64,000 nucleotides of DNA from Candidatus Hinthialibacteria bacterium OLB16 (lineage in GTDB: Bacteria > Hinthialibacterota > Hinthialibacteria > OLB16), in NCBI GenBank assembly GCA_001567115.1, contig LMZT01000038.1, positions 9,530 to 73,529 on the forward strand, in the 5' to 3' direction. The position numbers were made by a program, and so were the translations under genes. Shown piece after piece: positions 1-60,800 of this stretch (position 1 is its first letter; each line of letters opens with the position of its first letter). Under the pieces are notes generated by a model. That model made no database searches and had not been told where the DNA came from. It saw only the letters and a list, made by a program, of their open reading frames with translations.

Positions 1-2
1 CC

Positions 3-9378: not shown

Positions 9379-12300
9379 ATGTTAAAAAACTGGTCGCAGC
9401 CGCTCTGAATTTTCGCATCTATTTGATTATCGGGGCTTTGATCCTCTCTGGGTATGGCCTCATTACCGCCCACAAACTGCCGATCGATGTCTTCCCTGAT
9501 ATGAACCGCCCCAATGTCACGATCCTCTCCGAGGTCCATGGTTATGCCCCCGAGGAAATCGAAAAGCTGGTGACCTTTCACATCGAATCCGCCATGAATG
9601 GCGCTCCTGGGGTTGTCCGGGTCCGCTCGATTTCATCGGTGGGGCTGTCCATGGTGATGGTTGAATTTGATTGGGGGCTGGATGTTTACAAGTGCCGCCA
9701 GATTGTTCAGGAGAGGCTTCAGATGGCCCAGGAAAAACTTCCTGAAGGCATCACGCCCACCCTGGCTCCGGCTTCCTCTGTTACCGGTGAGATCATTCGC
9801 ATCGCATTAACCTCGGATGGAAAAGTCACTCCGGTCGAACTCCGATCCTTTGCGGATTGGGAGATTCGCCCCAGATTGCTGACTGTCCAGGGGGTTGCGC
9901 AGGTCTTCACCATCGGTGGCGAGGCGCGTGAATACCAGATCCTTGTCGATTCAGCCGCCATGGCCAGGTATTCCGTGTCGATCAATGACCTCGAAGAAAC
10001 CCTCCGTGGAGCCACTTTGAACACTCCCGGCGGATTCATCTTCCGTGAGGGAACCGAATTGCTCATCCGCAACATCGGGCGTCCGGAGCAGATTGCAGAA
10101 ATCAAAGACCTGGTCATCAAGACCGGGGGGCATGGTTCTGTGCGCCTGAATGACATTGCCGATATTGTGGAAGGGAAAAAGATCCCGCGTGGGACTGCCG
10201 GGCTGAACGAGCAGGATGCGGTCATTATCAACGTCCTCAAACAACCCGAGGCCAACACCCTGGTTTTGACTCAAAAACTCGATGAGGAAATTCAGGCGAT
10301 CAAAAAGTCTCTCCCCAAAGGCATGACACTGAATGACCAGGTGTATCGCCAGGCGCGTTTCATCGAGGTGGCTGTCCATAATGTGATTGAAGCGGTCCGG
10401 GATGGATCGATCCTCGTGATCATTATCATTCTGGTCTTCCTGATGAACCTGCGGATGTCATTCATCATTCTGACTTCGATCCCGCTTTCCGTGATCAGCA
10501 CCCTGATTGTCTTCAGCTGGTTCGGATTGAGTGTGAATACCATGACGCTGGGGGGGATTGCTGTTGCGGTCGGCGAGCTGGTGGACAGCGCGATTGTCGG
10601 CGCCGAGAACATCTATCGCCGGCTGAGGGAGAATTCCAGCAGGCCGCCGGAGGAACAGAAACCCCTCTTCAATCTGCTGTCGGATGCGACTGCGGAGGTC
10701 TTCGGCGGCATTGTGCTGGGGACCCTGATCGCCCTGCTGGTGGTTTTTCCTTTGTTTGCGCTGCCAGGCATTGTCGGAAAGATTTTCAGCCCGATCGGGA
10801 TTGCCTATCTGGTTTCCAATTTTACCTCGATGCTTGTTTCCATCACCGTCACTCCGGTTTTGTGCTCCTATTTTCTCAAAGGCCGCCTGCCGGAGTATGG
10901 CCGGGATGGCTTTGTGGTTCGCGGACTGAAGCGCATGATTGAGCCGGTGGTGCTCAGTTCGGTCCGCTTTCCTCTGGTTGTTCTCCTTGTGGGTGGATTG
11001 CTGGCCGGCTGGGCGCTCTGGAAAGCGACACGTGTGGGACTGGATCTTCTGCCTGAATTCAATGAGGGTTCGGTTTTTGTGATCGTGATGTCCCCGCCGG
11101 GAACCGACCTGGCCACCTCTTCACGGCTTGCCAAGGCAACTGCAGTCGCCATGCAGTCGGTTCCGGAAATTGCCGCCAGCGTAACTGGCCATCGATCCGG
11201 GAGGTCTGAAGGGGATGAGCATGCCCATGCGATCAGCCAGTCGGATGTCGAAGCCGAGATCGTCACCCCCGAAGGGAAGAAACCCAGGACACTGGATGAA
11301 ATACAGGATGATGTCCGAGCTGCGATCGGCCGAGTCCCCGGGGCGATTACCGAACTCTCTCAGCCGATCTCCCACCTGATCAGCCACCTGATCGGTGGAG
11401 CGAGATCCGAAGTCATCGTCAAAATCTATGGGCCTGACCTCGATGTTCTGCAGGAGATCGGAAACAGGTTTCATGAAACCATCCGGACTGTGCCCGGAGT
11501 CGTCGATGACTATGTCGAGCAGCAGATGCTTATTCCACAAATCCGGATTGTTCCGAATGACCTCGAACTGTCGAGGTATGGCCTCCACAAAGGGGATGTT
11601 CTCAAAGCCTTGGAAATCGCCCTTCAAGGTGAAGTGCTCTCCCAGGTTCAATCCGGGGAAAGGTATTTCGACCTGACTCTCAGAGGCGGCGACTCGCTGC
11701 GGGAGACGGAGGAAAGCATCAGCAATTACCTTCTCACCACCCCCTCGGGTTCGCAGATTCCACTCAAAGCGGTTGCGGATATTGTCGAGGATGTCGGCCC
11801 GAATGTGATCAACCATGAAAATGCACGGCGCAGGCTGTATGTTCTCTGTAATGTCTCTGGAAGGGATCTCGGCAGCACGGTCGAGGAGATCACCTCGAAG
11901 CTCAGCCAGGAAGAACTCCCCGAAGGGTACAGCTGGGTGATGGGTGGGCAGTATGAACAGCTTCTTGAATCCGGCAGGGTGATGACCCTCCTGTTCCTGA
12001 TCACACTGCTGCTCATGTTCGCTGTTCTGGCGGCAGAGTTCCGCTCGATGCCCCTGGCGGTGATCATCATGCTCAACATCCCTCAGGCGGTGATCGGTGC
12101 GGTCATTGCATTGATAGTGACCGGCACCAGCCTGAATATGGGGGCTGTGGTTGGATTTGTGGCCTTATCCGGGATCGCCGCGCGAAATGGGATCCTCCTG
12201 ATTTCCCACTGGGTCACACTGATCGGTGAAGAAGGCCATCCTTTCAGCGCGGAGACGCTCCTTCTGGGTTGCAAGGAAAGATTGACACCTGTTTTGATGA

Positions 12301-12503
12301 CCGCCCTCACGACCACTCTGGGATTGATTCCGCTTGTTCTCGCCAAAGGACAGACTGGAAAAGAGATCCTGTATCCGGTGGCAGTTGTAATTTTTGGCGG
12401 ACTGATATCATCCACCCTGCTCGATTTTACAGTCACTCCGGCAGCCGCCAGGCTGTATGGGCGCAAAGGTATTTTGCGCCTGGCAGGCAAAGAAGAAGCC
12501 TGA
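9379..12503 (+). CDS. Heavy-metal efflux RND transporter (HME-RND, CzcA/CusA family). The annotated start is disturbed by an apparent 1-nt indel in an A6 run at 9384-9389; the ORF track starts at TTG 9423.
   Basis: 1026-aa ORF with CzcA/CusA-type sequence throughout (LPIDVFPDMNRPNVTILSEVHGYAPEEIEKLVTFHIESAMNGAPGVVRVRS...). ATG at 9379 gives MLKN then a stop. Reading A7 instead of A6 gives MLKKLVAAALNFRIYLIIGALIL, in frame with the rest. Confidence 0.85.
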
Positions 12504-12522
12504 GCCGGGTTGCTCCACAGAA

Positions 12523-12554
12523 GTGCGGGGGAGTTGGATCGAACTCTCCCGCAC
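12523..12554. terminator. GC-rich hairpin between convergent genes (RND pump and the 12626-14260 minus-strand gene); candidate bidirectional terminator.
   Basis: gtgcgggggag-ttggatcgaac-ctctcccgcac inverted repeat 20 nt after the czcA-like stop. No U-tract. Confidence 0.4.
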
Positions 12555-14390: not shown

Positions 14391-15446
14391 ATGTCGAAAA
14401 CTCTCAAGGTTGGTGTGATCGGTGTAGGAGGCATTGCCCATACCCATTTCCCGGGATGGCAGGAAAGCCCGCATACTGAGATTGTGGCTCTATCCGATGT
14501 CTCGGCGGAAGCGCTCAAATCTGCCGGTGAGAAAACCGGCGCCACAAAACTGTTCGAAAAAGGGGAAGATCTGATCGCCTGCAATGAGATCGATGTGGTC
14601 GATATCTGCACACCGAACATGTACCACACACCATTGACAGTCGCTGCGCTGGAGGCGGGAAAGCATGTCATCTGCGAAAAACCCCTGGCGCCACAGCCCG
14701 ATGACATCCGTAAAATGATCGCGGCGCGGGATAAAAGCGGAAAGATGCTGATGACAGCCCAGCATTTCCGCTTCGAAGGCAGCTCGAAAGCCCTCAAAGC
14801 GGAAGTCGACAAAGGGGTTCTCGGGAATGTCTACCATGCGCGCTGCTGGATGCTCAGGCGTTCCGGCGCACCCACACGGCCCGGCTTTATCCAGAAGAAA
14901 CACAGCGGGGGCGGACCCTGCATCGATATCGGAGTCCACATCCTCGACCTGACCCTGTGGATGATGGGCCAGCCCAAACCGGTGACTGTCACCGGTGTGA
15001 CCCAGGACAAACTGCGCCGGCTCCCGGGCGCATTCAGCAACTGGGGCGGCCCGATTCCGGCGGACTGGGATGTCGAGGAATTCGCTTCGGCGTTTGTACG
15101 GTTCGAGAATGGCGCGACCCTGGTTCTCGAGGTTTCATGGCTGCTCAACCACCCCAAAACCCATGGTGAGGACATGCAGATGTGGCTCTATGGAGACAAG
15201 GGCGGGGCACACTGGCCGCAGAATGTGATTCTGACAACCGATAATGCCACATGCCAGCACTTTGACACGCAGCTGCAGAATGCTGAATCCGGCGAGCCTC
15301 ATGCCAAAGAGTGCATGGCATTCGCCGAAGCGATCATCAAGGGCGAACCTTCTCCGGTTCCTGCTGAACAGTCACTGGATGTGATCGCGATTCTGGATGC
15401 GCTTTACAAAAGCGCGCAGGCCGGCAGGGAAGTCTGCCTCAAATAA
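14391..15446 (+). CDS. Gfo/Idh/MocA family NAD(P)-dependent oxidoreductase.
   Basis: N-terminal Rossmann motif KVGVIGVGGIAHTHFPGW, conserved EKPLA segment, typical length of 351 aa. Confidence 0.85.
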   Translation: MSKTLKVGVIGVGGIAHTHFPGWQESPHTEIVALSDVSAEALKSAGEKTGATKLFEKGEDLIACNEIDVVDICTPNMYHTPLTVAALEAGKHVICEKPLAPQPDDIRKMIAARDKSGKMLMTAQHFRFEGSSKALKAEVDKGVLGNVYHARCWMLRRSGAPTRPGFIQKKHSGGGPCIDIGVHILDLTLWMMGQPKPVTVTGVTQDKLRRLPGAFSNWGGPIPADWDVEEFASAFVRFENGATLVLEVSWLLNHPKTHGEDMQMWLYGDKGGAHWPQNVILTTDNATCQHFDTQLQNAESGEPHAKECMAFAEAIIKGEPSPVPAEQSLDVIAILDALYKSAQAGREVCLK

Positions 15447-15462
15447 GTCCCTCAAAAAATAA

Positions 15463-15496: not shown

Positions 15497-15533
15497 TCGA
15501 TTCCTTCGATCGGCTGAGTGGCTTCTGATTCCT

Positions 15534-17954
15534 CTATTCGTCGGAGGAGGTGCTGCCTTCTTCCTTGCCGCCCTTTTTGGCCGGTTCGGCGATGCGGCCA
15601 AACTCGAGGCGCTGCCCGGCCTTCATTTCGAATTCCAGTGTCCGCCCTTTTTTGTTGGTCAGTGTCCGCGAATCGACTTTGGATTTGAGGCGGATCTTGT
15701 ATGTCAGCCTTTGCTGGTCGAAGGGGGAATACAGGCGAAGAATCCCTGTCCGGGTGGCTTCAATCAGCAGCCCATCGACTTTGCCATCCTCCATGGTGGC
15801 GGCTACCAGGTGCCCTCCAGGTGTGCGCCATCCCCAGAACTGAGCATTCGAATTCTTTCCCAGCCCGGGAAATATGCGCAATACCCCCTGGTTCCATTGC
15901 ATGAACATCTCGCACACCGCTGCGGAAAATCCAAGATTGGCATCCACCTGGAAAATATCACTCGCCTTGTCCGAGTCTTTCGGGTGGTGGCTGTTCAATC
16001 CATTCGGCCGTGTGAAGCGCTGGATGAATTCCTCGAGGCATTGGATGGCACGGGGAAAAACACCCAGGCGGGAATAAATGGCCGACAGCCAGATCCAGGT
16101 GAATCCTCCAAATTTGTCGAAGCCCGCCTCTTCAGTCCCCTTGAGGGTATCGAGAGCGGTCTGCAGGTCAGTCTTGCTGGAACTCAGGGAAACTTCTCCC
16201 AGTGGGTAGATCGCCATCAGCTTTGACAGATACCGGTGGGATTCCTTCCAGTCAATGTTCTTGCCATCCAGCCAGCGGCCATTCTGGCAGGGATAATCCG
16301 GAAGATGATCGAGGATATACTGCCAGCGCTCCAGGCGGCGTGGGTCTTCACGTATCTCCGAGTGTCTCGAGATATCAATCAACTTGCGGAACAAGGCACG
16401 GAACAGGGCGATGTCGATTGTCGGATTCTCCACCCAGGCCTGTGGGGTGCCTTTCCCGAGGTTGGGGCAGAAAGAGGGGTAGACCTCCAGTTTTTCGATG
16501 CCATTCTGAAACAGCCAGTTTTCCAGAAATTCGGCACACTCCAGAGCAAAGTTGTAGCCAATGGTGGTCAGATAGATCGAGTCGCTGGTATGCTCCCAGA
16601 ACCGGAGGAAATCATAAGCGACCCAGGCGGTTCCTCCCGGCCACAGCTTGGCGGGCAGCCAGGTGGAAATTTCCTGCCCGCGCGGCCCCATGCACAACGG
16701 AACCTTAATCCCTCCCCATCCCCAGTGGCGGGCGGTATCTGTCCTCATCTGATCACGAAGCTCCAGAGCGAATAAGCGCACAAATGGCTCCACCATATCC
16801 AGGCGATTTGTGCAGAATGCCCCCCAGCTGTTCATCTGCAGGTGCAGGTCGGTCCGGTACCCCCCATGCCAGGGAGCGAAGGCATGGCCATTCCATAACC
16901 CCTGCAGGCCTGCCGCCTGTTTCCCGACTGCCGAGGAAGCCCCCAGCAGATACTGGCTCAGGTACCAGTGTCTCTCGATTTCCGGCTTTTCAGCCCAGCT
17001 GAAGCCCGAACGGAACCAGTATTTCTCCATCGCCTGCTGGTTGCGGCGGATCGCGCCACGATACCTCTGGGGTTTTTCGACATTCAAAGTGGCTCGAACA
17101 CGGTCTTCCGGCGAGGCGGTTGTCTCCGAACAGGCCACCACCACCCGCAGCTCCAGGGAGGTGTCATCGATATCATCGAAAATGATTGAAGTTTCAGAGG
17201 AATCCTGGCTCGCCAGCCGGGAAGGAATGTCACTTTCCAGCCCGATGACATAAGTCAGGTTATCTGGAAAGGTGCATTGCAGCTGCAGCAAGGTTCCTCG
17301 ATGCCGGAATATCGGATCCGGCAGGTGCTGCACATGATCTTTCAGCAGACGGGCACGCAGGCTTCTCAGGGGGCGTTCCGATTCAATCCGGATGCGCAAT
17401 ACATTCTGATCCGCCGCCAGAAAGGTCTGCACCACATAATGGGTCAATTTCAATGGGCTGCATAAAAAATCGGAATCAAATTCGGTGGTAACCTCGCCTG
17501 TCAGCATTGAAAAAGTCTGCTGGAAATTACGGAAAGTGCATTCTCCGATCGGCTCCAGAGCCAGCCAGGCAGCCGGCTGCAGGGAAGGGTAATGCCGGGG
17601 AAGCAGGTTCCTCCCCCTTTCTTCTACTTTATTGAGTGATTTCCAGTCCTGCTCCTGCACCCATGTGGCAATCTGCCGAAAAGGGACAGGAGGGAGATTG
17701 GAATCGTTTCCCGGTGCGCGATGATCCCAGATATCCCCTTTGTTCAATAACCAGGTCAAACGATTCGGGGTGCCATAAAACATCGCCGCCATATCGCCAT
17801 TCCCGAGCGGGATTCCATCCATCCATGTGAGCCGTGGCTCGTGATTCACCCAGTCATGTCGTGCGATGACTTCGCGTGGATCCTGGATTTTGGAGAGTTT
17901 CTTCCAGTCCAGGCTGCGTGTTGCAGTTCGATAGTCCAGATTCAATGCAGGCAT
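15534..17954 (-). CDS. Glycoside hydrolase, GH95-like (alpha-L-fucosidase family, six-hairpin (alpha/alpha)6 barrel type).
   Basis: 806-aa ORF. N-terminal motif IPLGNGDMAAMFYG...LLNKGDIWD resembles the GH95 N-terminal LPIGNGRLGAM...LNEDTLW signature. Length fits GH95. Confidence 0.5.
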   Translation of the reverse strand: MPALNLDYRTATRSLDWKKLSKIQDPREVIARHDWVNHEPRLTWMDGIPLGNGDMAAMFYGTPNRLTWLLNKGDIWDHRAPGNDSNLPPVPFRQIATWVQEQDWKSLNKVEERGRNLLPRHYPSLQPAAWLALEPIGECTFRNFQQTFSMLTGEVTTEFDSDFLCSPLKLTHYVVQTFLAADQNVLRIRIESERPLRSLRARLLKDHVQHLPDPIFRHRGTLLQLQCTFPDNLTYVIGLESDIPSRLASQDSSETSIIFDDIDDTSLELRVVVACSETTASPEDRVRATLNVEKPQRYRGAIRRNQQAMEKYWFRSGFSWAEKPEIERHWYLSQYLLGASSAVGKQAAGLQGLWNGHAFAPWHGGYRTDLHLQMNSWGAFCTNRLDMVEPFVRLFALELRDQMRTDTARHWGWGGIKVPLCMGPRGQEISTWLPAKLWPGGTAWVAYDFLRFWEHTSDSIYLTTIGYNFALECAEFLENWLFQNGIEKLEVYPSFCPNLGKGTPQAWVENPTIDIALFRALFRKLIDISRHSEIREDPRRLERWQYILDHLPDYPCQNGRWLDGKNIDWKESHRYLSKLMAIYPLGEVSLSSSKTDLQTALDTLKGTEEAGFDKFGGFTWIWLSAIYSRLGVFPRAIQCLEEFIQRFTRPNGLNSHHPKDSDKASDIFQVDANLGFSAAVCEMFMQWNQGVLRIFPGLGKNSNAQFWGWRTPGGHLVAATMEDGKVDGLLIEATRTGILRLYSPFDQQRLTYKIRLKSKVDSRTLTNKKGRTLEFEMKAGQRLEFGRIAEPAKKGGKEEGSTSSDE

Positions 17955-18314
17955 GCCAACTTCCTCATTCCCAGTGGAACACTCGGGAAATTTTCCCGTC
18001 CAGCTTAAACAGACAATAGCCTGATACTATACTACTCTTTGAGTTACGTGTCAAAAATTGAGGAAATACTTTAGAGTTATTGGCGTAACATATTATCACA
18101 GAGGGTGTTGAACAATAATTTTTTTGACCACCTCCCCGCCTCCTGATGGAGAAAACCGTTTTTTTTTCCATTTCAGACGGCTGTTTTTTGAACCAGTTTG
18201 CATATCGGACCCTCTCAATGCAGACCGAAAAGGTTCCTCTTTTTCACTTTCAGGGGAACATGGTTTTCTTGTAATACATGATGAATGAGGCATCCACCCA
18301 TGGGAGAAAAAGCA

Positions 18315-20260
18315 ATGCGGATCACCTTCTTTTCATTCCTTCTGGCAACAGTTTCTTCGGGCGCGGTCGATTTTGCTTCGGTGCAGCAGATCGGCGAATG
18401 GCTCCACCACCCGGTTCTGGGGGATCCCTCCTTTGATTCTTTTCAACGGCTTCCTGGAAATCCGGTATATCGTGGAACTCCCCCTTTCGAATGGCCGGTC
18501 AATGGCTTCCTCTTCGAAGATCCGGTCAGTCAGGATTGGTTTCTCTATATCGCTTATATGCCAAAGGGTATGCCATGGGGCCGGGCCGGGGGATGGATTG
18601 TGTGGTTTACCGGTCGAACGACCGGGGCGGTACCTGGGAGAAGGCTGGCCCGGTCTTCCCGGAAGCTCCTTTCCGTTTTCAGGGAGCCTCCTCGAATGTC
18701 GGATATGCCCCCGATGTTTCTGTAGTTTTCGATGGAGGGCGTTATCACATGATTTATGACTGGGCCAGTGAGGATTCCACCTGGGAAACCATGACAGTGC
18801 CCAAAGGGGGAGCGGATAATGGCATTGGTTATGCCTGGTCGGAAAAACCTGAAGGCCCCTATATTCGAACTCCCATCCCCATCTATTCCAATGCTTCTCA
18901 AGTGCTTCGGCTGGGGAAATATCGACGCGCCTATGCGGCTACACTCATCCGGCGCACCCAGGACTGGATGGTTCTGGCGATGATGGATTCCGGCCCTTCT
19001 TTCAGCTGGGCGCTTTTCGGGATGACTTCCGATAAACCGGAAGGGCCTTATTCTGAGCCGACAGCCCTGCTGTGTGTCGAGAGCACTCGATATCATCCTC
19101 CCCTGCTGGAATTTTTCCCCGCTTTCACACATGAAGGCTGGATCTATGCCCCCGCCACCTCAGTGGCTGCCAATCGGAATTACCAGGCCATTTTTCGCGC
19201 CCCTCTCGACCAGGCGCATCACTCTGAAGCCTGGGAAATCCACCAGGCGGGTTCGGTCTGGCACTCCGAGCCAGTCGAAAATGAATATTCCGGAATCTGG
19301 GGGCAGACCTTTTCCGGCTCAGTGGGAAATGACGGGCAGTTCACAGTTATGTTTCCCAGCCGGGATCCGCAGGGCATGGGCACCATCAACCTGGCTAAGC
19401 GTCCATGGGCCCAGCCCCTGCGTGGCCAGGGGTTTATCCTGAGCGGGCACAAAGGGCCGAGCCTCTCTCTCCTGCGGCAGGCGCATTCCTCCTTTGCCCT
19501 CGAAGTGGAAATGACCCTGCATGGAAAAGCGACCCTGGTCTGGGATTATCAGGGATTTCTCGGGCCTGATGCCGCGGCCGCGGATTCGGTTCCTCATCCG
19601 CTGTCTCTGTGTGCTTTCAGTGGCCTGGTGCTCTCATCGACCGGCTGGAAATTGATCGAAGTCCCGGATCCCCTCCACACGAAGGTGATAGCAGAGGGTC
19701 CATCCGGGAAAAATCCACTGTTGAAGTTCCGCCTGGAAATCGATGCCAGTGGGAATCTTGCCTTTTCCGGTGAGAATGGAGCCGGCTGGAAAGGTCCTGT
19801 CACAGTTCCCGCGGGCCGCATCGGATGGCTGGTCGACAAAAACAGCCACCTCGAAGTCCACCATTTCAATCTTTCAGGAGCCACCTGCTCCAGGCCGATA
19901 CGCTATCTTCCCCTCGAGGGAGTTCTGGGTGCCGGTGCGGCCAATAAGGAGTGGCAGGAATCCCCGGATGCATCCTTTGCCAGTGGAGCGGGCATGATTT
20001 CACTCACTCCACAGTCCAAAGCCAAATGGAATGTGTCTGGCAAGGCATTCACCCTGATGGCTCCACGCGGTCCTGAATATGGAACCGCCGAGGTTTTTCT
20101 GGATGGAACACCTCAGGGAGAGGTTGCTTTCCATGCCAATGAAAAATCCTCATCGGGTCCAGTCCTTCACCTGGAAGCCAGCCTTCCTGGACCTCATGCT
20201 GTCCTGATTCGTGTGAAGGAAGGCAGGATCCCGTTGGACTGCCTCGAAGTGGACTGGTGA
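18315..20260 (+). CDS. Secreted glycoside-hydrolase-like protein (five-bladed beta-propeller GH43/GH117-like with BNR/Asp-box), interrupted by an apparent frameshift near 18555-18575 in an aaaggg / ggggccgggccggggg run.
   Basis: Frame A (18315-18725) encodes signal peptide MRITFFSFLLATVSSGAVDFA plus FEDPVSQDWFLYIAY. Frame B (from ~18560 to 20260) continues with YAMGPGRGMDCVVYRSNDRGGTWE (Asp-box) and 560 further aa. RBS GGGAG 8 nt before the ATG at 18315. Confidence 0.5.
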
Positions 20261-29279: not shown

Positions 29280-29365
29280 TTTTTGGCCACTCCCCAAAAT
29301 AGATCTGGACAGGAAAACCTGGCATGTATATAGTGCACATATAGTCACTATTACGGGGGTCCAGA

Positions 29366-36167: not shown

Positions 36168-36361
36168 TTGTTTACCTCCCGCAAGTGAGAGACCAACAAT
36201 AGCACAGACAGCAGCCGCGATCCTATCCGCTCTTTTTCTTCGAAGATAAAGGATCGACAGCTGTGTGAAGTTATATTGAACCCGCTCCCACCCGCCCGGA
36301 AAAGGCAGGCGGGCCAGCGGGTTCATTCAACCTTTAGAGAATTCCGATGCCGCCGCTCTTC

Positions 36362-41885: not shown

Positions 41886-43305
41886 TCAACGTTTCTTTTT
41901 CTTCGCCGGCTTGCGTGTGAGGTTTGGCTGGGTCATGGCGATCGGGTCGAGCACCTCTTTGAGCTGCTCCCGGGAAAGGTATCCCTGTTCGAGAATCACC
42001 TCCGGGATCGGTTTGCGTGTCTTCAGGCTTTCCTTGACCACTGCTGCAGCCTTGTCATAGCCAATATAAGGATTCAGGGCGGTGGCGATGCTGGGGCTGT
42101 TTTCGACATACCAGCGGCACCTCTCCACATTGGCGGTGATGCCATCCACACATTTGCGTGCCAGATGGAGCGCCGCCTGAGTCAGGATATCCAGCGATTC
42201 GAGCAGGTTCGATCCCAGCACCGGCATGTGCGTATTCAGCTCCAGCTGTCCGGCGGCCGCAGCCGCAGAAACTGCCGCATCATTGCCGATCACCTGGATG
42301 CACACCATGTTGACCGCTTCGCAGATGGATGGATTGATCTTCCCAGGCATGATCGAAGAACCCGGCTCGACCGCAGGCAGGGAAATTTCATTCAGTCCGG
42401 TGTTCGGGCCTGAAACCATCAGCCGCAGGTCATTGCACAGCTTTCCGATGTCGATGGCGGTGAGGCGCAGCACGGCGGAGAGATGCGCCATGTCCGTCAG
42501 GTACTGCGTGGTCTCCATCGGATCGGCAGGCACCTCATACTTCCGCCCGGTTATTTTCGAAAGGTGCTTCATGATCAATGGCCGAAATTCGGCATAAGTG
42601 TTCAATCCGGTTCCGATGGCGTTCCCTCCCACTCCCAGGCAGCGCAGGAATTTGTCGGTGTCCCGGATGCGCTCGAGGTCCTTTTTCAGGGCCGATGCAT
42701 GGGCCTGAAAGGCCTGGCCGAGTGTGACTGGAACCGCATCCTGCAGGTGGGTGCGGCCGCTTTTCACAATGCGCTTGAACTGGCGGGCCTTTTTTCTCCA
42801 GCGATCCGACCAGGGCCTTGAGCGCATCCAGCAGGCCTTTGGAAAGATCCAGTCCCGCCACACGTATCGAGGAGGGGAATACATTGTTCGTGGACTGCCC
42901 CTTGTTGACATCATCGTTGGGATGGACCAGTCCTCGATCTCCGCGTTTGCCACCCATCCTTTCAGCGGCACGGTACGCTATGACTTCATTGATGTTCATG
43001 TTGCTTGAAGTTCCGGATCCCGCCTGGAAAATATCCAGCGGCAGGGCTTCATGATGCTTTCCTTCCGCGATCTCTTTGCAGGCTGCGATGATCGCTTCCC
43101 CTTTCTTCTTATCGAGGATTCCGAGCTCCATGTTGGCCAGCGCGCAGGCCTGCTTGATCTGTGCGAGAGCGCGAATCTGGGCAGTGTGAAGCCGGCGGCT
43201 GCTGATCTCAAAGTTGTGGATCGAGCGCTGTGTGTGAACTCCGTAAAGGGCATTAGCGGGAACCTGAAGCTCTCCGAGTGAATCCTTTTCGATTCGTGTG
43301 GCCAT
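41886..43305 (-). CDS. fumC: Class II fumarate hydratase (FumC), split into two ORF-track fragments by an apparent extra base in an A6 run (+ strand T6 at 42790-42795).
   Basis: MATRIEKDSLGELQVPANALYGVHTQRS...VHPNDDVNKGQSTNNVFPSS in fragment 1. KSGRTHLQDAVPVTLGQ...GSSIMPGKINPSICEAVNMVCIQVIGND...LNPYIGYDKAA in fragment 2. The junction LVGSLEKK|ARQFKRIV is restored by reading A5. Confidence 0.85.
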
Positions 43306-45597: not shown

Positions 45598-47580
45598 ATG
45601 GCAAGTGAACCAACAGTCCAGAACATGATCTCACTCACACTGCCGGATGGTTCGATCCGTGAAGTGGCCGAGGGGACGACCGGTCTGCAGTTTGCCCAGT
45701 CGATTGGCAAACGGCTGGCGGGGGATGCCCTTGCGATTTCGCTGAATGGGCGAACCACCGACCTGAATATCCCATTGACCGCCTCTTCCGAAATCAGAAT
45801 CCTGACTTTCAAGGATCCGGAGGGGCGTGCGGTATTGCGCCATAGCTGCGGTCATGTCATGGCGCAGGCGGTGATGGATCTCTTCCCGGGCGCCGCGCCT
45901 GCCGCCGGTGATTGGGCTGATGAACGCTACTTTTATGATTTCCAGGTTTCACGCCCGTTTACTGCAGAGGATCTCCAGAAGATCGAGCAACGGATGACGG
46001 AAATCTGCCAGGCGGATGTTCCATTCAAACGAATGGAGCTCCCCGCCGATCAGGCCCTTCAGGCACTGGGTTCCACACGCAACCTTTTCAAGGAAGAGAT
46101 TATCGGTGACCTGGCTGGCCAGGGCCAGGTGATCTCCTGCTACAGCCAGGGAGACTGGGTGGATCTGTGCCTGGGAGCGCATGTCCCTTCCACTGGAAAA
46201 ATCGCCGCCTTCAAGCTGCTCATGACCGCCGGAGCCTACTGGCATGGCGATGAATCCAATCCGCAGCTCCAGCGGATCTACCTGACTGCTTTCCCTTCCC
46301 GGAAAGAGCTGGATGAATACCTCTCTCAGATCGAGGAAGCGAAAAAGAGGGATCACCGCAAACTCGGGCAGGAACTCGACCTGTTCACCATCTCCAGCGA
46401 TGTCGGCAGCGGCCTGGTGCTCTGGATGCCGAAAGGGGCGGCACTCAGGTTTGAACTCGAAACCTTTCTTCGCGGAAAACTGGTCGAATATGGTTATCAG
46501 ACAGTCTATACCCCCCATATCGGGAAGCTGGACCTGTACCGGACCAGCGGCCATTTCCCTTATTACAAAGATTCTCAGTTCCCTCCCATTCACATGAATG
46601 AACATGGGGCCGAGGCAGAAGACTCCGAGGAGGGGTATCTGCTCAAACCGATGAACTGCCCGCATCATATCAAAATCTACGAAGCCACCCCGAAAAGCTA
46701 CCGGGATCTCCCCTATCGCCTGGCGGAGTTCGGCACTGTCTACCGTTACGAGCAGTCGGGAGAACTTTCCGGCATGACTCGAGTGCGTGGATTCACCCAG
46801 GACGATGCGCATCTTTTTGTCACGCCCGACCAGCTCGAAGAGGAGCTGCAACGGACAGTCGATCTGGTTTTGTTTATCCTGCGCAGCCTGGATTTCAAGG
46901 ATTACCGGATTCGCTTCGGCAAACGGGATCCCCAGAGTGAGAAGTTTGGCGGTTCAGCCGGCCTCTGGGACCGTGCGGAATCCAATATCCGCAATGTGCT
47001 GCGCGGAATGAATATGGATTTCTCTGAAGAAGCGGGTGAAGCCGCTTTTTATGGGCCGAAAATTGACTTCGTGGTGCGCGACTGCCTGAACCGTGAATGG
47101 CAGCTCGGCACAGTCCAGGTGGACTATGTGCTGCCGGAACGTTTTGATCTGAAGTATATCGGTTCGGATGGAAGCCCGCATCGCCCGATCATGATCCATC
47201 GTGCCCCATTCGGTTCGCTCGAGCGGTTTGTCGGCATCCTGATCGAACATTTCGCCGGGGCTTTTCCAGCCTGGCTGGCGCCGGTCCAGGTCCGGATCCT
47301 GCCGGTTGTCGATGAGGTTTTACCCTATGCTGAAAAAGTGTATGCTGCCTGCCGCGCACATGGATTCCGGACCGAACTGGATTCACGCGCTGAAAAAATC
47401 GGTTATAAGATCCGTGCCGCTGAAACTGAAAAGGTTCCTTTCATGCTGGTTGTTGGCCGAAGGGAAGCCGAAAGCGGTTCGGTTTCACTCAGGAAAAGGA
47501 CCCAGGGAGATCTGGGAACCCTTCCTTTGGAAGAAACTATAGGTAAACTTCGCGGGGAGCTGGCCAGGCCAGCCGAATGA
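45598..47580 (+). CDS. thrS: Threonyl-tRNA synthetase.
   Basis: N-terminal TGS domain (MISLTLPDGSIREVAEGTTGLQFAQSIG). Class II aaRS core (HIGKLDLYRTSGHFPYY, RVRGFTQDDAHLF). C-terminal anticodon-binding domain. The ORF-track start at 45424 runs through the tRNA and is rejected. Confidence 0.85.
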   Translation: MASEPTVQNMISLTLPDGSIREVAEGTTGLQFAQSIGKRLAGDALAISLNGRTTDLNIPLTASSEIRILTFKDPEGRAVLRHSCGHVMAQAVMDLFPGAAPAAGDWADERYFYDFQVSRPFTAEDLQKIEQRMTEICQADVPFKRMELPADQALQALGSTRNLFKEEIIGDLAGQGQVISCYSQGDWVDLCLGAHVPSTGKIAAFKLLMTAGAYWHGDESNPQLQRIYLTAFPSRKELDEYLSQIEEAKKRDHRKLGQELDLFTISSDVGSGLVLWMPKGAALRFELETFLRGKLVEYGYQTVYTPHIGKLDLYRTSGHFPYYKDSQFPPIHMNEHGAEAEDSEEGYLLKPMNCPHHIKIYEATPKSYRDLPYRLAEFGTVYRYEQSGELSGMTRVRGFTQDDAHLFVTPDQLEEELQRTVDLVLFILRSLDFKDYRIRFGKRDPQSEKFGGSAGLWDRAESNIRNVLRGMNMDFSEEAGEAAFYGPKIDFVVRDCLNREWQLGTVQVDYVLPERFDLKYIGSDGSPHRPIMIHRAPFGSLERFVGILIEHFAGAFPAWLAPVQVRILPVVDEVLPYAEKVYAACRAHGFRTELDSRAEKIGYKIRAAETEKVPFMLVVGRREAESGSVSLRKRTQGDLGTLPLEETIGKLRGELARPAE

Positions 47581-47628: not shown

Positions 47629-48250
47629 GTGCAGGGGAAAATTCCCAAACCCAAAGACCGGATCAACTATGACATCCGCGAGTCCGAGGTTCGTCTGGTC
47701 GATGAAAATGGCCAGCATGTCGGGGTGATCAACACCCAGGAAGCCATCCGGCGGGCCGAAGCGGCGGGTCTGGATCTGGTGGAAGTATCTTCTGCTTCAA
47801 GACCGTATGTCTGCCGCATCATGGACTACGGCAACTATAAGTATGAACAGGCCAAGAAGCAGAAAGATGCGCGCCGGAAACAGCATGTCATTGATGTCAA
47901 AGAGGTGAAATTGCGGCCACGAATCGACGAGCACGATTATGAGGTTAAAATGAGGAATGCCCGCAAATTCATCCTGCAGAACGACAAAGTGAAATTCGTG
48001 GTCATGTTCCGGGGTCGTGAACGGAACCATTCGGAATTCGGAACGAAACTCCTCTCCCGGGTGATCGAAGAACTTCAGTCGATCGCCATTGTGGAATCCC
48101 GCCCCCAGTCGGAAGGGCGAAACCTGATCATGGTGCTCGCTCCGGATCCCGCGGGAGTGAAAGCCGAAAAGGCCAGGCTGGAGAAACTTAAAAAACTGGA
48201 GGAAAAGGAGGCCGCATCAAGCGCTGCTTCCCCCCAAAAGGAGTTCATAA
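47629..48250 (+). CDS. infC: Translation initiation factor IF-3. In the assembly it reads through, in frame, into rpmI (see findings). True start codon uncertain; non-canonical starts are usual for infC.
   Basis: KDRINYDIRESEVRLVDENGQHVGVINTQEAIRRAEAAGLDLVEVSSASRPYVCRIMDYGNYKYE...FRGRERNHSEFGTKLLSRVIEEL...IMVLAP. Confidence 0.8.
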
Positions 48251-48444
48251 TGAACAAGATGAAGACTCAACGGAGCGCAGCGAAGCGGTTTTCGCTGACA
48301 AAGAAGGGTAAGATCAAACGATCCAAGGCCTATCACAGCCACCTTCTGACTTCGAAAAACACCAAACGGAAACGCGGCCTGCGCAAGGCTACGTATATCT
48401 CCCCTTCGGATGAGGGGCGGGTCCGCCGCATGTTGGGATTGTAA
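48250..48444 (+). CDS. rpmI: 50S ribosomal protein L35.
   Basis: MNKMKTQRSAAKRFSLTKKGKIKRSKAYHSHLLTSKNTKRKRGLRKATYISPSDEGRVRRMLGL. Own RBS AAGGAG 7 nt upstream of the ATG. Confidence 0.8.
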   Translation: MNKMKTQRSAAKRFSLTKKGKIKRSKAYHSHLLTSKNTKRKRGLRKATYISPSDEGRVRRMLGL

Positions 48445-50096: not shown

Positions 50097-50864
50097 TTGA
50101 TAGAATCTTGCCGGTTTTTTGTCGATGTCATGACAGGTTCAATCTCACGCAAAATATCTCTCCAGGGCACGGGTACATTCTCGTCTGGTACCGATAACGA
50201 AATACGGCGGATTCGCCTGATCCACGAAGCCCACTCTCCCTCTCAGGCCGATATCTGGCTGGTGGAATGGCAGGGCAGGGAATGTGTGCTGCGGGATTAC
50301 TCGAAACCCCGGCATTTCTATTGGCGTTTCATCTGCCGCTGGGCGGTTCGGCGGGAAATCAAAGCCCACCAGCTGCTCGATGGAATCGATGGCATCCCCC
50401 GCCTCCTTAAGGTCATAAACCGGGACAGCTACCTCATCGAGTACATCCAGGGTTCTTCCCTCCATTTTAGAAAGCACCAGCCTGCCGCCGAGTTCTTCGA
50501 TAAGCTGGGATGGATTGTTGGCCAGATGCACTCCCATCAGGTGGCTCATGGAGATTTCCGCAACAAGAACATCCTGGTCGGGCCGGATGATTCCCCTTAT
50601 GTGATCGATTTCACAACAGCCTGGTGGGGAACCACCTGGTGGCGAAAACCGCTCTTTCGGTTTTTCTGCCGGCTCGATGACCGTCGCCTGGCTGTTTCCC
50701 GGGCGCATTTCCTTCCCGAGCAGTTTACAGAGGAAGAGCTGGATCGGATTGCCACTGGCCCATTTTACATCCGTATCGGCAAGTTCTACCGGAAGAAAAT
50801 TTACCCGCTGTTTGCTCCTTCAGCGAGCAAAAAAGCCCAGAAAAGAGCCAACCGTAATCGGTAG
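50097..50864 (+). CDS. Small atypical protein-kinase-like protein (lipopolysaccharide kinase Kdo/WaaP family or RIO-like).
   Basis: 255 aa. Catalytic-loop-like HGDFRNKNILV and DFG-like VIDFTTAWW. No other domains. Confidence 0.45.
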   Translation: MIESCRFFVDVMTGSISRKISLQGTGTFSSGTDNEIRRIRLIHEAHSPSQADIWLVEWQGRECVLRDYSKPRHFYWRFICRWAVRREIKAHQLLDGIDGIPRLLKVINRDSYLIEYIQGSSLHFRKHQPAAEFFDKLGWIVGQMHSHQVAHGDFRNKNILVGPDDSPYVIDFTTAWWGTTWWRKPLFRFFCRLDDRRLAVSRAHFLPEQFTEEELDRIATGPFYIRIGKFYRKKIYPLFAPSASKKAQKRANRNR

Positions 50865-52376: not shown

Positions 52377-53421
52377 ATCTTCCTCTGATGAAAGGACACC
52401 AATCTGTGGCCCGTTATTTCCTTACCCTCATGGCGGTTTTCCTCCTGTTTCTTCAGGGGTGTACGACTGAACCTTCCAGCCCACCGCCGCCAGCCGGCCA
52501 GGAGCCGAAAACAGGTGGTTCGTCTTTATCGGATACCGCTTCCCAGGCGCCCAAGCCAGCACCTCCAGTCAAAAACCTTTACGATGAAAAAGCGGATGCC
52601 TCCAGACAGGTCGCCGATGCCCTTCACGAAGCCCGCCAGGACCATAAGCATGTCCTCATCCAGTGGGGTGGCAACTGGTGCCCCTGGTGCTTCAAACTCC
52701 ATGCAGTGCTCGAGTCGGATCGCAGCCTGCGGGGCCTTCTCCGCGCTGAATATGTCTATGTGCCCATCGAGAGCAAGAATGTGGATTTGGCGGCCTCCTA
52801 TAAGGCCCCGGTCAACAGTGTCCCCTTCCTGACTGTGCTCGATGCCGATAATAAAGTGCTGGCCAACCAGCCCACCGATCCTCTCGAGGATGGCGACCAT
52901 TATGATGCGGCCAAAGTCAAAGCCTTCCTCGAGCAGTGGAAGCCAGCCCCTCTCGATGCGGAGCAGCTGCTGGCGGCTGCACTCGGACAGGCACGCAAAG
53001 ACCAGCGCTCGATCCTGATTCACTTCGGCGCGCCTGGTGCATCTGGTGCAAGCGCTTCGATCGCTTTCTCAGCCGGGAGGATATCCAGCCGCTGATCTCT
53101 CCGGATTTCATCAACCTCAAAATCGATATCGAACGCATGGCTGGTGGAGAAAAGGTCTACCGGCAGGTTCGCAAACAGGGGCAGGGAATCCCCTGGTTTG
53201 CCATCCTCGATGCCAATGGTGAGGCTGTTTCCACCTCGGATGCTCCCGCTGGGAATATCGGATTCCCCATCAGCCCGGGTGGCATCGATCACTTCCTGGG
53301 AATGTTAGGTTCTTCGGCTCACCATCTCTCCAACGAGGGAAAAGGGAAAATCCAGGCGGCGCTTCAGGCGGAGGCAGATCAGGTTCTCACCTCCATGCGC
53401 ACCTCCGGAAGACCCAACTGA
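52361..53421 (+). CDS. Lipoprotein with two thioredoxin-like domains (WCPWC and WCIWC CxxC motifs; TlpA/DUF255-like thiol:disulfide oxidoreductase), interrupted by an apparent C2/C3 homopolymer indel near 53031-53036.
   Basis: Lipobox LFLQGC. Domain 1 HVLIQWGGNWCPWCFKLH. After the frame switch, domain 2 ILIHFGAP|WCIWCKRFDRF repeats the same pattern. The two ORF-track pieces 52361-53095 and 52936-53421 join once one C is added. Confidence 0.65.
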
Positions 53422-54804: not shown

Positions 54805-57800
54805 ATGCAATCCATGCGATCTGCACTAATCGCCGGGATCCTGTTGCTTGCGATGGTCGTCGCTTTTGTCCCGGCCTCTCAGGCGGCAACCTACACCAGT
54901 CAGTTGTTCCTGACATCGGAGCCGGGTGGAAATGTGAGGATTCAATTCACTGCCACTGGTGTCGCACCGATGACAGCCAATATTTACCGGATCAACTCCG
55001 GCATTATGCCGCTTTTGGCTCAATTCAATGCGGGAACCCTGGTCGCCCCAAACATTCCAGTGACTTCCGGGGTGCCCAAGAACATCATCAACAGCCCCAA
55101 TGAGGCAACCAACCAGGGGAATGGTTTTCTTCCAGGAACAACCACTGTCAGCGGTGGCCAGTACTGGTACCTGATCCGGGTCTACGAGCCTGGGCCGGTG
55201 ACAACCAATTCGATTATCCGGGGTGCGGTGGCGGATGAGAATCCGACTGCCACCATCATTCCGGGTGGGCTGGTTGTGACCCCCTGCGGTCCGGGGCTGA
55301 ATGCCACATCCGTGGTCGAGTTCAGTTTCCCGAACCCGTTCGACGAGGTGGTCGATGCCGGCGCAAACATGGGGTTGAACCCGGGAGCGGTGAAGCAGTT
55401 CGCTTTTCCGAGCTCGGCCTACCATTTCCATTATCGCCTTTACCGGGTGGCCAAAGCGGTTCCCTTTAATGTGATCACTGACCCGGTCTGCGCCAATGAT
55501 ATCACCCCGGCCAGCCCGGCGAATGAAATTTACCCGTATAACCGCGGCGCCATCACAGTCCTTACCGACACCTCCGCCGCTCCTGGCACCGCTTATGCCT
55601 ATGGCCTTCGACTGATCGATACAGTCGGCAACCAGAATGGCGGTTTCCCACTCACTGCCAATCAAACCTTCCAGGCAATCAGCGCTCCGATCGATGCCAC
55701 TGTCACCGAAAAGCTGACACCCTGCAATGCCTATAACGAATTGACTTTCACTGTCGATGCATCCTCGATGCCCGGTGGTGTCTATCATGTATATGTCTCG
55801 ACAACAGGGCCAGTCAATTCGGGCAACCCCGGAACCGCCTTGACTCCTCCCGGCGGCCTTCCTGTTACCCAGGACTCGATTACTTACATCCATGATTCCA
55901 ATTCGGTCGTTCCCCGTGCGCTTGGGGTCACCTACTGGTATGCAGTCAGGCTGCAAATCCCCGGCCCGGTCGTTTCCTGTTATTCGAATTCTCCGAGTGT
56001 CTTCACCACTCTCTTCAATCCGGTTCCTGTGGTCACCATCGATCCGCCGACCTGCACAGTTGTCCATGGCCAGGTGACAGTCTCTGGAACCGCAACCGAT
56101 GCCACCTCGGAAATCATGGGTGTGACTGTCTGTGTCAACACCTCCACTGTTCCCGCCTGTGTGGTCGCTTCCGGAACCGGGACCTGGACCGCGGTTGTTC
56201 CTGTCGATCCAGCCCTTGCAGACAGTTCAGTTCTCTCTGTCACCGTTTCCGCCTTCAATGATTGCGGTCAGATCGGAACCGCTACCACCACTTTTTGTGT
56301 CGACAATGAGTGTGTCGGCCTGGTAACACCGATGGCCTTCTCGCCTTCCGGTGGAATCATTGGCCCGGGCGGTTTGAGCTTCAGTGGGCAGATTGCCGAT
56401 GATGATTTCTCGACACTCTGCGATGCCGGAATCAATGAAGTTGTCATTACCGCCACTGCTACAGGTGTTTCTTATTCTTATTCGCCGGTTGTCGCTCCTC
56501 AGACCGGAGTTTTTGTGTTTAGTGATAACCAGCTGTTCGGCCTGGCTGATGGCCAGACAACCGGCCTGGTTCTGAGCGCCACTGATGGCGCCTGCGAAAT
56601 TAACAATACCTGCAGTTTCCCGATTGGTTCCGTCACTGCCGACTTCTCCGCTCCGGTGTGCGCCATTATCGCCCCGGTTTCGGGCTCCCTCGGCACCGCC
56701 CATCTGATCAGTGTGACCGCCGAAGATATCGGCGCGGCAGGCATTGCCGATCTGTGTGTCATTATTTCTGGACCGGTTTCCTCGGTCACCTGTGTCGGAT
56801 CGGCAACCTCTTACACCTCGCTGTTCGCACCGGGCGTGGATGGAACCTATACCATCATCACCCAGGTGACAGATACTGTGGGCAACACCTCGACCTGCGG
56901 TCCGGTGGTGGTCACCATCGATGTGGCTCCACCAATCGTTGCAGTCACCAGCCCGCTTCCACCAAATATTGGCGTAAATGGCAGCTTCCTCCTCCAGGGA
57001 ACCGGACAGGACCTCGGTTCTGGAGTCTGTGAGGTCACTGTCGAATACACCACCTCATCCGGCACATCGTTTGTCGTGGCAACAGTGATTCCTCCCTGTG
57101 CGCTCAATGTCAACTGGTTCGTGACGATTCCGGTGGATCCCCTTCTCAATGATGACGATATCTTCGATGTGACTGTCACAGCGGAAGATGGATCCGGCAA
57201 TGTCGGTTCCACTACGGAATCTTATTTCGTTGATGACACCGCTTCCTGCCCAGTTCTGAATACACCGATTGCAGGCTCAACTGTTATTGTTGGACCTGGC
57301 GGGCTCCCGGTCGATTGGATGGGAAGCGATGATGATTTCCCCGGACCATTCGATACCGGGGTGAGCCAGGTATACGCTTCGGCAACAACTCCATCAGCTG
57401 TCCTGTTCTCTTCCGCACCACCCCAACTCGGTATGGCAAGTGGGACCAACACCTTCATGCCGGGGAGTGGGCCGGGAGCGCCGGGCCAGTTCTTCCTCGA
57501 TCTGGATGATGGTGAAACCGATGTCATCAATGTCTGCCTGGTCGATGGAGCGACAGCCACTCAGAATGTCTGCTGTGTCACCTTCGAGGTGATCATCGAC
57601 CTGACTGCGCCGGTTTGCCTCCTGACATCACCAGCCAATGGCACCTGCTTCAATTTCGCCAATACAATCCTCGGAGCCACAGATTTCGTGGTGACCGCGA
57701 CAGACACAGTGGCCGGCCTTGCTGAAATCGGCATTAATGTCAGTGATGCCAGTGGTGTCATTGCAACAGTGACCGCAACCGCTTCAGGCATCGTGGACAC

Positions 57801-60800
57801 AGCCATCCTCAACTACGGCATCGCGCTCCTGCCGGATGGAACCTACACAATCACCTCATCCGCCACCGATACCGTTGGCAATGTCGCGCAGTGCGGGTCG
57901 ATCGTCGTGACTGTGGATAATAACAGCCCGGTTGCCGCCATCCTCAACCCGCCACAGGCTGTGGTGAATGGCACCGTGGAGGTGAGTGGCTCTTCATCGA
58001 ATGCCACCTCACTTATGTTGTCCTATCCGGGTATTGGCGGTGGTCTGCTTTCCCCGCTGGATGCAACGACCACGGCTATGGTCCCTCCGACCGTAGTCTT
58101 CGACACCTCACTGCATGATATGAATTCCGAGGTGCTGGTTCCGTTCTCACTCGGATTCACTTTCCCGTTCTATGGCAATTGCTACGATTCCGCGTATATC
58201 TCTGCACGCGGTCTCCTCGAGTTCCAGAATCCCACATCACCAGGTGCAACACCGACTGTTCCCCTCGTCAACAGCATCACTCCCAAGGTGATGGGTCTGT
58301 GGTCGGCGATCGACGCTCCGGTGATCAGGGTGGTTCAGTCACCTACCGCCAGTATGATGACCGCTTCATCGTCGATTTCACCAATGTCCCTGATGAAACA
58401 GGTTCCGGCACCAACACGTTCTCGATCACACTTTACGAAACAGGTGCTGTGAGCTTCATTTATGCCGCGACTCCCGATGTGACTTATGATTACCCCAGCG
58501 CAGTCGGTATTTCCGGCGGCGTCAATGACCAGGATGTCACCGGTTTTGTTCCTGAAGCACTGGTCAGCAATGGTGTCGACCGTCCATCCATCAATCTGTC
58601 AGGGTTGACCGGCTTCCCGCTTCTTGCTGTTTCTGAATCGATGGCGGTGTACGAGATCTTTGAAGTCTCTTCGTTTGATCTCGGTACCGGTTACAGCGCC
58701 CAGGGAACCACCACCAGCATTCCGGTTCCAGTTGGACTTGGTGGTGCCTGGAGTGCGACAATTCCTGTGACAAGCCTGTTCCCGGTGGATGGAAGCGCTC
58801 AGGATGGAGATCCTTATAATATCTTCATTACACCCTTCGGCGGCTGCAATGGAAATTCTGTCGGTGATTGCTTCAACATGATCTATGTCATCGACCAGAC
58901 TGTCCCGCAGGTCGATTTCGTCAGCGCATCGGTTCCTGCCTATTCCTGTGTTTCGAACATCTTCGATGTGACCTACGAGGCCAATGATGCCCTCTTCCCA
59001 GGATGGCGGATTAACTCTGGGATCAATGCGGTCACCGCTGAGGTTTACCAGCTTGGTGCCTTTGTGGCCAATATTCCTGTGGTTGCAGTTCCGCCTTTGC
59101 CAACAGTGCCAAACAGTGGACCAGTTTCTCTCCTGATCAATGTGGATCCGAACAACATCCCAGGCCTCCAGCCAGGTTATTTCGGAATCGATGTGGTTGC
59201 GGAGGATACTGCCATTGATCTGCCCAACATTAATTCCTGGGCGGGCGGAGCTCCACCAGAAGTGTATTTCTATGACCCGTTGGGGCCTGTTTCTCAGCCG
59301 GTGTGCTCCAGGCTCTTCATTGCTGCTGTCACTGAAATCGCGGGTGCTTCCCAGACTTCGATCTATGAACTCGATCCGGATACCGGTGATTTGAGGCAGG
59401 AAATTGCCCTCCCGGCGATTATGTCTTCAACTCTCGGTTGTGCTTTAGGCTTCAATGGACAGAATCTGTACTATGCACCGACACGGGCTGCCAGCTCCGG
59501 TTCGGTTCTCTATTCCTTCGCAGCTGTTACAGGACCAGCCCCGGCAGTCGCTTCGGTGGTCCTGCCGGTCAGCCAGATTACCGGTATCGGTGCAGAAGAC
59601 GATCTTGTCTTTGTCAATGGACCTGTCGGCCAGAATTTCGTTTATGTTCTTGATGCGTCAACATTGATCCTCCAGGGGACCCAGACTGCATATAACGTAG
59701 CCCCTTGGACCGAAATTGCTGGTGCTGAGGTTGGATCCGGTATCTTCAACAGGACCTATGTTGCCAGATTGGCCGATCCTCCCGGGCCTGCAACGATGCT
59801 CGATATGTTCTACGAGACCTTCCCCGGTGGTCAGCTGTTCATGACCTTTGGAACACCAAACTTCCGAACCACAGGTCTTGGATTCAGTGGAACACGCCTC
59901 TTCCAGGGACGCCTGCCGGATAATGTCATCCGTGAGGTTGTCACCACCACACCCCATGCGGTCTACAATAGTGGTTTCCTGCTGAATTCATTCGGGGTTC
60001 CCAATGGAGCCACAGTGTGCGCAGTTGCTGCGGGTCCGATGATTGGCGAATGCACTCTCTGCCTGAATGATCTTCCAGCCAATCTTGCAACAGCGGTCAC
60101 CGATACCGCCGCCTGCGGAATCTCACAGGTCGACATTTATGCAATGCCATACGGCGCAACAGTGCCGTACCTGATCAATTCTGCAACCACATTGCCTGAT
60201 CTGGCGGTTCGTCCTTATGTACCGACTTCACCGTCAGCGGCTGTAGCCTATGGCCAGTTGACAGCGGCCTCGGCAGCCCAGTTCTTCCCGGCTGGCGAGG
60301 GTGAAATTCTCGTCTACTCCCAGGCCACGGATATTGCTGGGAATGTCGAATCACTCGGAGGCGCCCTCTCTCGCGGCATCACCTATCGTGTTGACTTCCG
60401 TGAGCCAAGAGTGGTCTATCTGGATACAGACCCCCATGCCACACGGGGCGATTATCCGAACAATGTCAATGTCACTCTGGCCATCGAGGATGTGGCTCTT
60501 GTGACATCCACTGTCTCCTTGACCGCCCAGTTCAGCACATTGGTTGGCAATGTCGATGTTGCCCTGCCGCTCGTTGTCAGTGGCACTGCGGTGAGTGGTC
60601 CGAACATTGTCACCACAACCTTCACGACCAGCTTCAATCCGGCTGGACTGGTGCTTTCGACAACTCAGTCGGCCTACATCGACTTCCTCATTGCTGCGAC
60701 TGACGAATGCCAGAATACAACCAGCACGGTTCTTATCGACCGCTTCATCGTCGACAATGCCACTCCTGAGGCCCAGCTGCCGGCTCCATCCTATCCGGCA

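Follow-up and report, generated by a model that had tools for sequence, protein, structure and literature searches.

Genes and single-base differences in the window

The window, a stretch of 64,000 nucleotides (nt) from contig LMZT01000038.1 of Candidatus Hinthialibacteria bacterium OLB16 (assembly GCA_001567115.1, contig positions 9,530 to 73,529), carries a series of conserved genes whose reading frames are broken at mononucleotide runs. For comparison, a conspecific set of 38 loci (L001-L038) was retrieved by exact-protein look-ups with rplT, a mandelate-racemase-like protein, a GFO/IDH oxidoreductase, trpF and a 425-amino-acid (aa) protein. These references come from independent public and run assemblies, are collinear with the window and share 98-99.8% DNA identity with it; together they cover positions 4383-58869, with each of the sites discussed below covered by three to 14 conspecific assemblies. 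The affected genes are the following:

9379-12503, + strand: czcA-like gene of a resistance-nodulation-division (RND) pump, with the Shine-Dalgarno sequence AAGGAG 8 nt upstream of the ATG at 9379
18300-20260, + strand: GH43-like gene, 653 aa in the references
36362-40042, - strand: nrdJ, class II (B12-dependent) ribonucleotide reductase, three open reading frames (ORFs) as assembled and 1226 aa after repair
41886-43305, - strand: fumC, 472 aa in the references, with an extra base at 42790-42795
from 47629 (infC) and 48250-48444 (rpmI), + strand: infC and rpmI, fused in frame by C6 into an ORF of 271 aa
52388-53421, + strand: thioredoxin-like lipoprotein gene, 344 aa after repair
from 54805 or 54814 to beyond 64000, + strand: giant adhesin-like gene, 4385-4388 aa in the references

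In a window-anchored pile-up exactly ten 1-bp indels are private to the window, each of them contradicted by every covering reference. In each of the ten, a mononucleotide run is one base longer or shorter than in the references; eight are coding and two are non-coding:

9384-9389, + strand: A6, A7 in the references (5/5), czcA-like gene
15454-15459: A6, A7 in the references (10/10), intergenic between the convergent genes 14391-15446 (+) and 15534-17954 (-)
18552, + strand: single G, GG in the references (9/9), GH43-like gene
29279-29284, - strand: T6 (A6 on the minus strand), T7 in the references (4/4), abutting the ATG of a tetratricopeptide repeat (TPR) gene
37415-37418, - strand: A4 on the + strand (T4 on the coding strand), A3 in the references (3/3), second frameshift of nrdJ
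39022-39026, - strand: T5 (A5 on the coding strand), T6 in the references (12/12), first frameshift of nrdJ
42790-42795, - strand: T6 (A6 on the coding strand), T5 in the references (14/14), fumC
48230-48235, + strand: C6, a 7-base tract in the references (11/11; C7, or CCCCTCC in L004), infC/rpmI
53033-53034, + strand: CC, CCC in the references (11/11), thioredoxin-like lipoprotein gene
58315, + strand: single G, GG in the references (9/9), giant adhesin-like gene

The indel at 29279-29284 lies in the 5' leader of the minus-strand TPR gene and hence causes no frameshift, so that it is harmless, as is the intergenic one at 15454. The original prediction, made from the letters of the window, had named eight frameshifts, all of which are present, each as a private 1-bp indel; the two non-coding indels had been overlooked. 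Its coordinates are exact for the A6 of the czcA-like gene, the T6 of fumC, the C6 of infC/rpmI and the CC of the thioredoxin-like gene. In the GH43-like gene the frameshift is real, but lies at the G at 18552, 3 nt to the left of the predicted 18555-18575, and in the adhesin-like gene it lies at the G at 58315 instead of the GG at 58318-58321. Both frameshifts of nrdJ are likewise confirmed with their coordinates shifted by one base, and the run given as T4 at 37416-37419 on the + strand is in fact an A-run on that strand, at 37415-37418. That all frameshifts fall in homopolymer runs is correct insofar as every indel changes a run length, but three of them involve runs of only 1-3 bases.

Among the references themselves 1020 sites are polymorphic, yet each natural indel either keeps the frame, is offset by another within a few bases or lies between genes; only L001, with its private indels in thrS, departs from this. 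The excess of frameshifts in the window goes beyond chance. Eight uncompensated coding frameshifts stand alongside 64 private substitutions. The genuine conspecific indel polymorphisms, at 7948-7961, 9186-9188 (in czcB), 32975, 34384-34391, 57348-57351 and 58601-58607, all either change the length by a multiple of three or are offset by a second indel 3-7 nt away, and provide an internal control for selective tolerance. The ends of the window that are without reference cover (1-4382 and 58870-64000) show no further frameshift, both lying inside uninterrupted ORFs.

Disruption and repair of the genes

Applying the ten reference run lengths to the window yields ORFs that match the reference sizes exactly, with 1041 aa for the CzcA-like protein, 653 aa for the GH43-like protein, 1226 aa for NrdJ, 472 aa for FumC, 227 aa for IF3 and 344 aa for the thioredoxin-like protein (338 or 344 aa in intact references), and the adhesin-like gene becomes one open frame. 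The junction peptides of the repaired products are identical to those of the references. Furthermore, in tblastn alignments the reference proteins cover the window end to end and switch frame exactly at the indel sites, and Pfam profile coordinates, which continue across the breaks in the sequence as assembled, are united into single full-length matches after repair. Thus the prediction that one-base corrections restore conserved proteins is borne out, as is the end-to-end alignment that had been suggested as a check.

In the czcA-like gene the lost base cuts the ATG at 9379 from the rest of the reading frame, so that the assembled gene starts at the TTG at 9423 and is 15 residues short; correspondingly, the Pfam ACR_tran match begins at profile position 13 as assembled and at position 4 when repaired. 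The A6 allele reads ATG TTA AAA AAC (9379-9392) and thereby contains an in-phase A_AAA_AAC slippery heptamer. The true junction of the GH43-like gene at 18552 reads ...WFLYIGLYAKGYAMGPGRG....

As assembled, nrdJ matches Ribonuc_red_lgC at positions 2-127 in one ORF and at positions 105-444 in the next, followed by a TSCPD fragment. The repaired NrdJ gives full-length Pfam matches and 100% coverage against homologues of 1200-1250 aa. In its C-terminal part (36362-37100) it carries the TSCPD domain and a linker of low complexity, with a CxxC...CxxC cluster at the C-terminus, an architecture that is common to the 1200-1250-aa homologues from many phyla. In fumC the Lyase_1 match, split into positions 1-145 and 143-312 as assembled, becomes a single match (1-312/312) upon repair.

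For infC the direction of the correction is C6 to C7, which gives an IF3 of 227 aa from a gene that overlaps rpmI by 62 nt, as in the conspecifics. Throughout the intact conspecific genomes the end of infC lies 62 nt within rpmI, in a different frame (window 48250-48311), as is seen from the coordinates of L001-L010, with infC at 9119-9802 and rpmI at 9741-9935, and the IF3 has a tail of ~55 aa beyond its C-terminal domain. An overlap of ~44-58 nt (by tblastn) is also found in relatives at ~76% identity (L039, L040, L042). A conserved out-of-frame overlap of infC and rpmI of such length is unusual.

The frameshift at 53033 falls inside the second thioredoxin-like domain and destroys its WCIWC motif. 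After repair, the product has a predicted lipoprotein signal, which ends in LQGC, and carries two Thioredoxin_7 domains in tandem, with one WCxWC motif in each (WCPWC and WCIWC). The adhesin-like protein of ~4388 aa contains Ig-like domains of the Big_13/Big_3_3 type and, by eye, a NIDO-like region at the site of the frameshift. The other giant gene flanking the region, at 18-6860, encodes a multi-beta-propeller (WD40-like) protein of 3035 aa, of which the window contains the C-terminal 2280 aa.

Indel spectrum and selection

The discordance between window and references rises steeply with the length of the run, affecting 4/14 7-mers (29%), 1/46 6-mers (2%) and 1/176 5-mers (0.6%), and at most 0.1% of shorter runs (2/2119 3-mers and 2/8542 2-mers). 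The five discordant runs of six or seven bases are all contracted. C/G deletions account for three of the other five (GG to G twice and CCC to CC) and A/T insertions for two (A3 to A4 and T5 to T6). Falling eight times in coding and twice in non-coding DNA, the indels show no preference by reading frame or coding status.

The 64 window-private substitutions (~1.3 per kb) comprise 47 synonymous, 15 non-synonymous and two non-coding changes. Their distribution does not differ between broken genes (six non-synonymous to 21 synonymous) and intact genes (nine to 26; Fisher p = 1), and the eight residues at which the repaired NrdJ differs from the conspecific orthologue all lie at variable alignment columns. 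The broken genes are therefore under the same purifying selection as the intact genes, and this selection is not relaxed. The private substitutions are clustered and mostly synonymous, with clusters in thrS (45882-45906 and 47136-47265) and at 36030-36182 and 50483-50488, a pattern more suggestive of recombination with a divergent strain, in short tracts, than of scattered point mutations or sequencing noise.

Source of the assembly and probable origin of the indels

OLB16 is bin OP3 (LMZT00000000; 181 contigs, 4.0 Mb), a metagenome bin from libraries that were all run on the IonTorrent Personal Genome Machine (PGM), with the 400-bp kit and the 318v2 chip. CLC was used for the assembly, followed by an automated indel corrector and manual curation, and "persistent frameshifts" were noted by the authors (Speth et al., 2016). 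On the PGM, long homopolymers are under-called, with an accuracy of ~68% for 6-mers, while high-frequency indels are for the most part insertions of A/T or deletions of C/G; many of them, and most of the strand-asymmetric ones, lie in 2-3-mers, and they yield frameshifts in assemblies (Bragg et al., 2013, PMC3623719). Broken products of the window have exact matches in GenBank, namely KXK38557.1 (the 340-aa nrdJ fragment), KXK38570.1 (the 244-aa N-terminal thioredoxin fragment) and KXK38573.1 (the 1215-aa N-terminal adhesin fragment, the other adhesin fragment being of 3173 aa). The C-terminal fragments KXK38571.1 and KXK38574.1 are co-clustered and derive from the same 90,124-nt OLB16 contig, with locus tags UZ16_OP3....

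The eight broken genes are very probably residual Ion Torrent single-base errors in genes that are intact in the organism, because other assemblies of the same species carry all of these genes intact. Taken as such, they are a textbook homopolymer error of flow chemistry and not a biological feature. In Ion Torrent sequencing the length of each mononucleotide run is read from the signal of one nucleotide flow, with long runs being systematically under-called and some short runs being subject to high-frequency indels. In the proposed mechanism, where the flow signal is mis-quantified in most reads at a position, the consensus of any assembler would inherit the wrong length. Ten such miscalls, eight coding and two non-coding, would then have been left in the 64-kb window, having been missed by the correction step of 2015, plausibly for want of close homologues of the lineage at that time. 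We infer that the wrong run length is carried by the reads at these sites, so that it would survive whichever assembler is used.

The original prediction of technical single-base errors instead of pseudogenes is supported by these results, since the indels are private, dependent on run length and blind to coding status, the genes show no relaxed selection and the source is Ion Torrent-only. Its term "assembly-error signature" is apt as regards the technical nature of the errors, but not as regards their cause, which would be an error of flow-chemistry reads and not a fault of the assembler.

Alternative explanations

The frameshifts could be genuine mutations of the Olburgen strain, which would then represent a recently degraded or mismatch-repair-deficient lineage, either at all eight coding sites or only at the three that recur in the sequencing run SRR29904083. 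Slippage mutations are likewise enriched in runs, and the frameshifts of the czcA-like gene, of nrdJ at 37415 and of the thioredoxin-like gene recur in contigs of this run that bear the unique protein variants of the strain. Indeed, several observations weigh against sequencing error. Logan contigs of SRR29904083 (1.9-5.2 kb) carry four proteins that are otherwise unique to the window; the czcA call of this run starts +57 after czcB and not +13, reproducing the frameshift of the window; and its 340-aa C-terminal nrdJ fragment overlaps a partial upstream fragment by 44 nt, as in the window. Furthermore, a 229-aa N-terminal thioredoxin fragment (P0148), found only in Logan and presumed to come from the same run, has the out-of-frame tail of the window, and the site at 37415 is supported by three references only. 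If SRR29904083 consists of independent and accurate short reads, its three indels would be genuine alleles, a case to which we assign a slim chance; if its reads are those of OLB16 or similar ones from Ion Torrent, the errors would lie at the level of the reads, in keeping with the description of the frameshifts as "persistent". That at least the czcA A6, the nrdJ A4 at 37415 and the thioredoxin CC are genuine alleles of the Olburgen strain is accordingly considered very unlikely. If true, an abundant wastewater population of Omnitrophota/Hinthialibacteria would have a disrupted class II ribonucleotide reductase, together with other run-slippage lesions, as for example in a mutator lineage.

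By contrast, genuine mutation would require that eight of ~40 genes (about one fifth), including infC and, twice over, nrdJ, are broken in a free-living strain, when more than 30 assemblies at ~99% identity have them intact. Non-synonymous changes are not in excess in the broken genes, and the window is free of nonsense mutations, of larger deletions and of insertion elements. In the absence of selection some indels should be non-coding, as two of the ten are, and 29% of the reference 7-mers differ, against a background of only ~1.3 private substitutions per kb. The data are Ion Torrent-only, with the persistent frameshifts reported by the authors themselves, and neither the N-terminal fragment of fumC nor the infC-rpmI fusion is on record in any assembly, exact-product look-ups of both (the fusion with V or M start) having returned no match, although such look-ups do not tell whether these two frameshifts are shared by other assemblies. 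Taken over all its variants, genuine mutation is therefore regarded as very unlikely.

The frameshifts might also be decoded deliberately, by programmed ribosomal frameshifting or transcriptional slippage, or they might reflect phase variation of the adhesin. A -1 slip at the A_AAA_AAC of the czcA-like gene would read MLK(N/K)LVAAAL, the functional frame, and adhesins are classic phase-variable genes. However, the frameshifts are conserved in no relative and all conspecific orthologues are in frame; among the relatives at ~76% identity infC is in frame, this being the only gene compared, as their 10-kb flanks are without nrdJ, fumC and the other broken genes. This comparison of infC/rpmI is based on a genome-contig scan with PheS, whose matches were all at 76% identity or less and included no conspecifics; no relative was recovered when an adhesin segment was used instead. 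Moreover, the required shifts are of both signs and spread over unrelated genes, with the same type of indel occurring in non-coding DNA, and in the adhesin-like gene, which has G in place of GG, all nine references have GG without any length variation among strains. Phase variation and efficient transcriptional slippage use tracts of 8-10 bases or more, so that the runs of 1-7 bases seen here are too short. The heptamer of the czcA-like gene is almost certainly coincidental, as relatives with A7 read straight through, and deliberate decoding as a whole is scarcely credible.

A last alternative places the errors not in the reads, but in the assembly, the consensus or the curation, that is in CLC, the indel-correction script or manual editing. 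The indel corrector and the manual curation of the authors could indeed have introduced wrong lengths or left them in place. Against this, the spectrum fits the read-level profile of the PGM, and the Logan contigs repeat three of the frameshifts, which points to the reads, provided that SRR29904083 is the same data set. Given this second assembly, an origin in the assembler or in curation is less likely than read-level error, and its probability is regarded as minimal. Read-level Ion Torrent error is therefore retained as the preferred explanation.

Consequences for annotation

The significance of residual Ion Torrent error lies in data hygiene and not in biology, OLB16 being the namesake reference genome of its lineage. 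The erroneous fragments stand in nr and MetaClust as separate proteins, such as KXK38557.1, a "ribonucleotide reductase" of 340 aa, or KXK38573.1 and KXK38574.1, which are pieces of one protein of ~4388 aa; the accessions to be listed as propagated erroneous calls are KXK38556.1, KXK38557.1, KXK38570.1, KXK38571.1, KXK38573.1 and KXK38574.1. The neighbouring aldo-keto reductase gene (35163-36326) is annotated from a far upstream ATG, giving 387 aa, and has 334 aa in every other assembly.

At ~16 residual indels per 100 kb, by extrapolation from the window, several hundred genes would be broken in the 4.0-Mb draft as a whole. Such breakage would inflate gene counts, yield false pseudogenes and fusions (e.g. 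IF3-L35) and distort calls of pathways and completeness. In the sequence as assembled, an ORF is split or truncated at each of the eight places named in the original prediction, and the need for frameshift-aware correction that had been proposed there is supported. Gene calling in OLB16 would best be corrected in a frameshift-aware manner against intact conspecific metagenome-assembled genomes (MAGs), of which many are now available, for example GCA_023150685.1 and GCA_015075265.1, or one of these MAGs could replace it as the reference.

Breaks of a similar kind are seen in other assemblies. L001 (GCA_016706995.1) has private indels in thrS (+1, +1 and -2, at the window equivalents of 46039, 46055 and 46321) and no thrS gene call, and in L009 (GCA_021405065.1, "COP1") the adhesin is split into 1086 and 3297 aa and the thioredoxin call has 231 aa. 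Therefore, assembly-specific breaks are not confined to OLB16.

Comparison with known systems

The frameshifts of the window share some features with genuine pseudogenes, for example those of host-restricted bacteria, where many genes are frameshifted in mononucleotide runs as well. Unlike these, the window is without relaxed selection, without other types of lesion and without sharing of the lesions with close relatives; furthermore, core genes of translation and dNTP synthesis are affected, and non-coding DNA equally so. The slippery-looking heptamer of the czcA-like gene and the run in the adhesin-like gene recall the -1 frameshift of dnaX (A_AAA_AAG), the +1 frameshift of prfB and phase-variable tracts. 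By contrast, the sites of the window are not conserved, their tracts are too short and they have no family-specific context. Indels in nanopore and other long-read MAGs are alike in that they are private changes of a run length by one base, truncate proteins and require polishing or frameshift-aware correction (Sereika et al., 2022, PMC9262707), whereas the chemistry of the window is Ion Torrent and its errors extend to runs of 2-3 bases; nanopore sequencing as a source of the errors was ruled out, the assembly being Ion Torrent-only. With the errors of the Ion Torrent PGM (PMC3623719), the ten sites agree in type, direction and length dependence, and no essential difference is seen.

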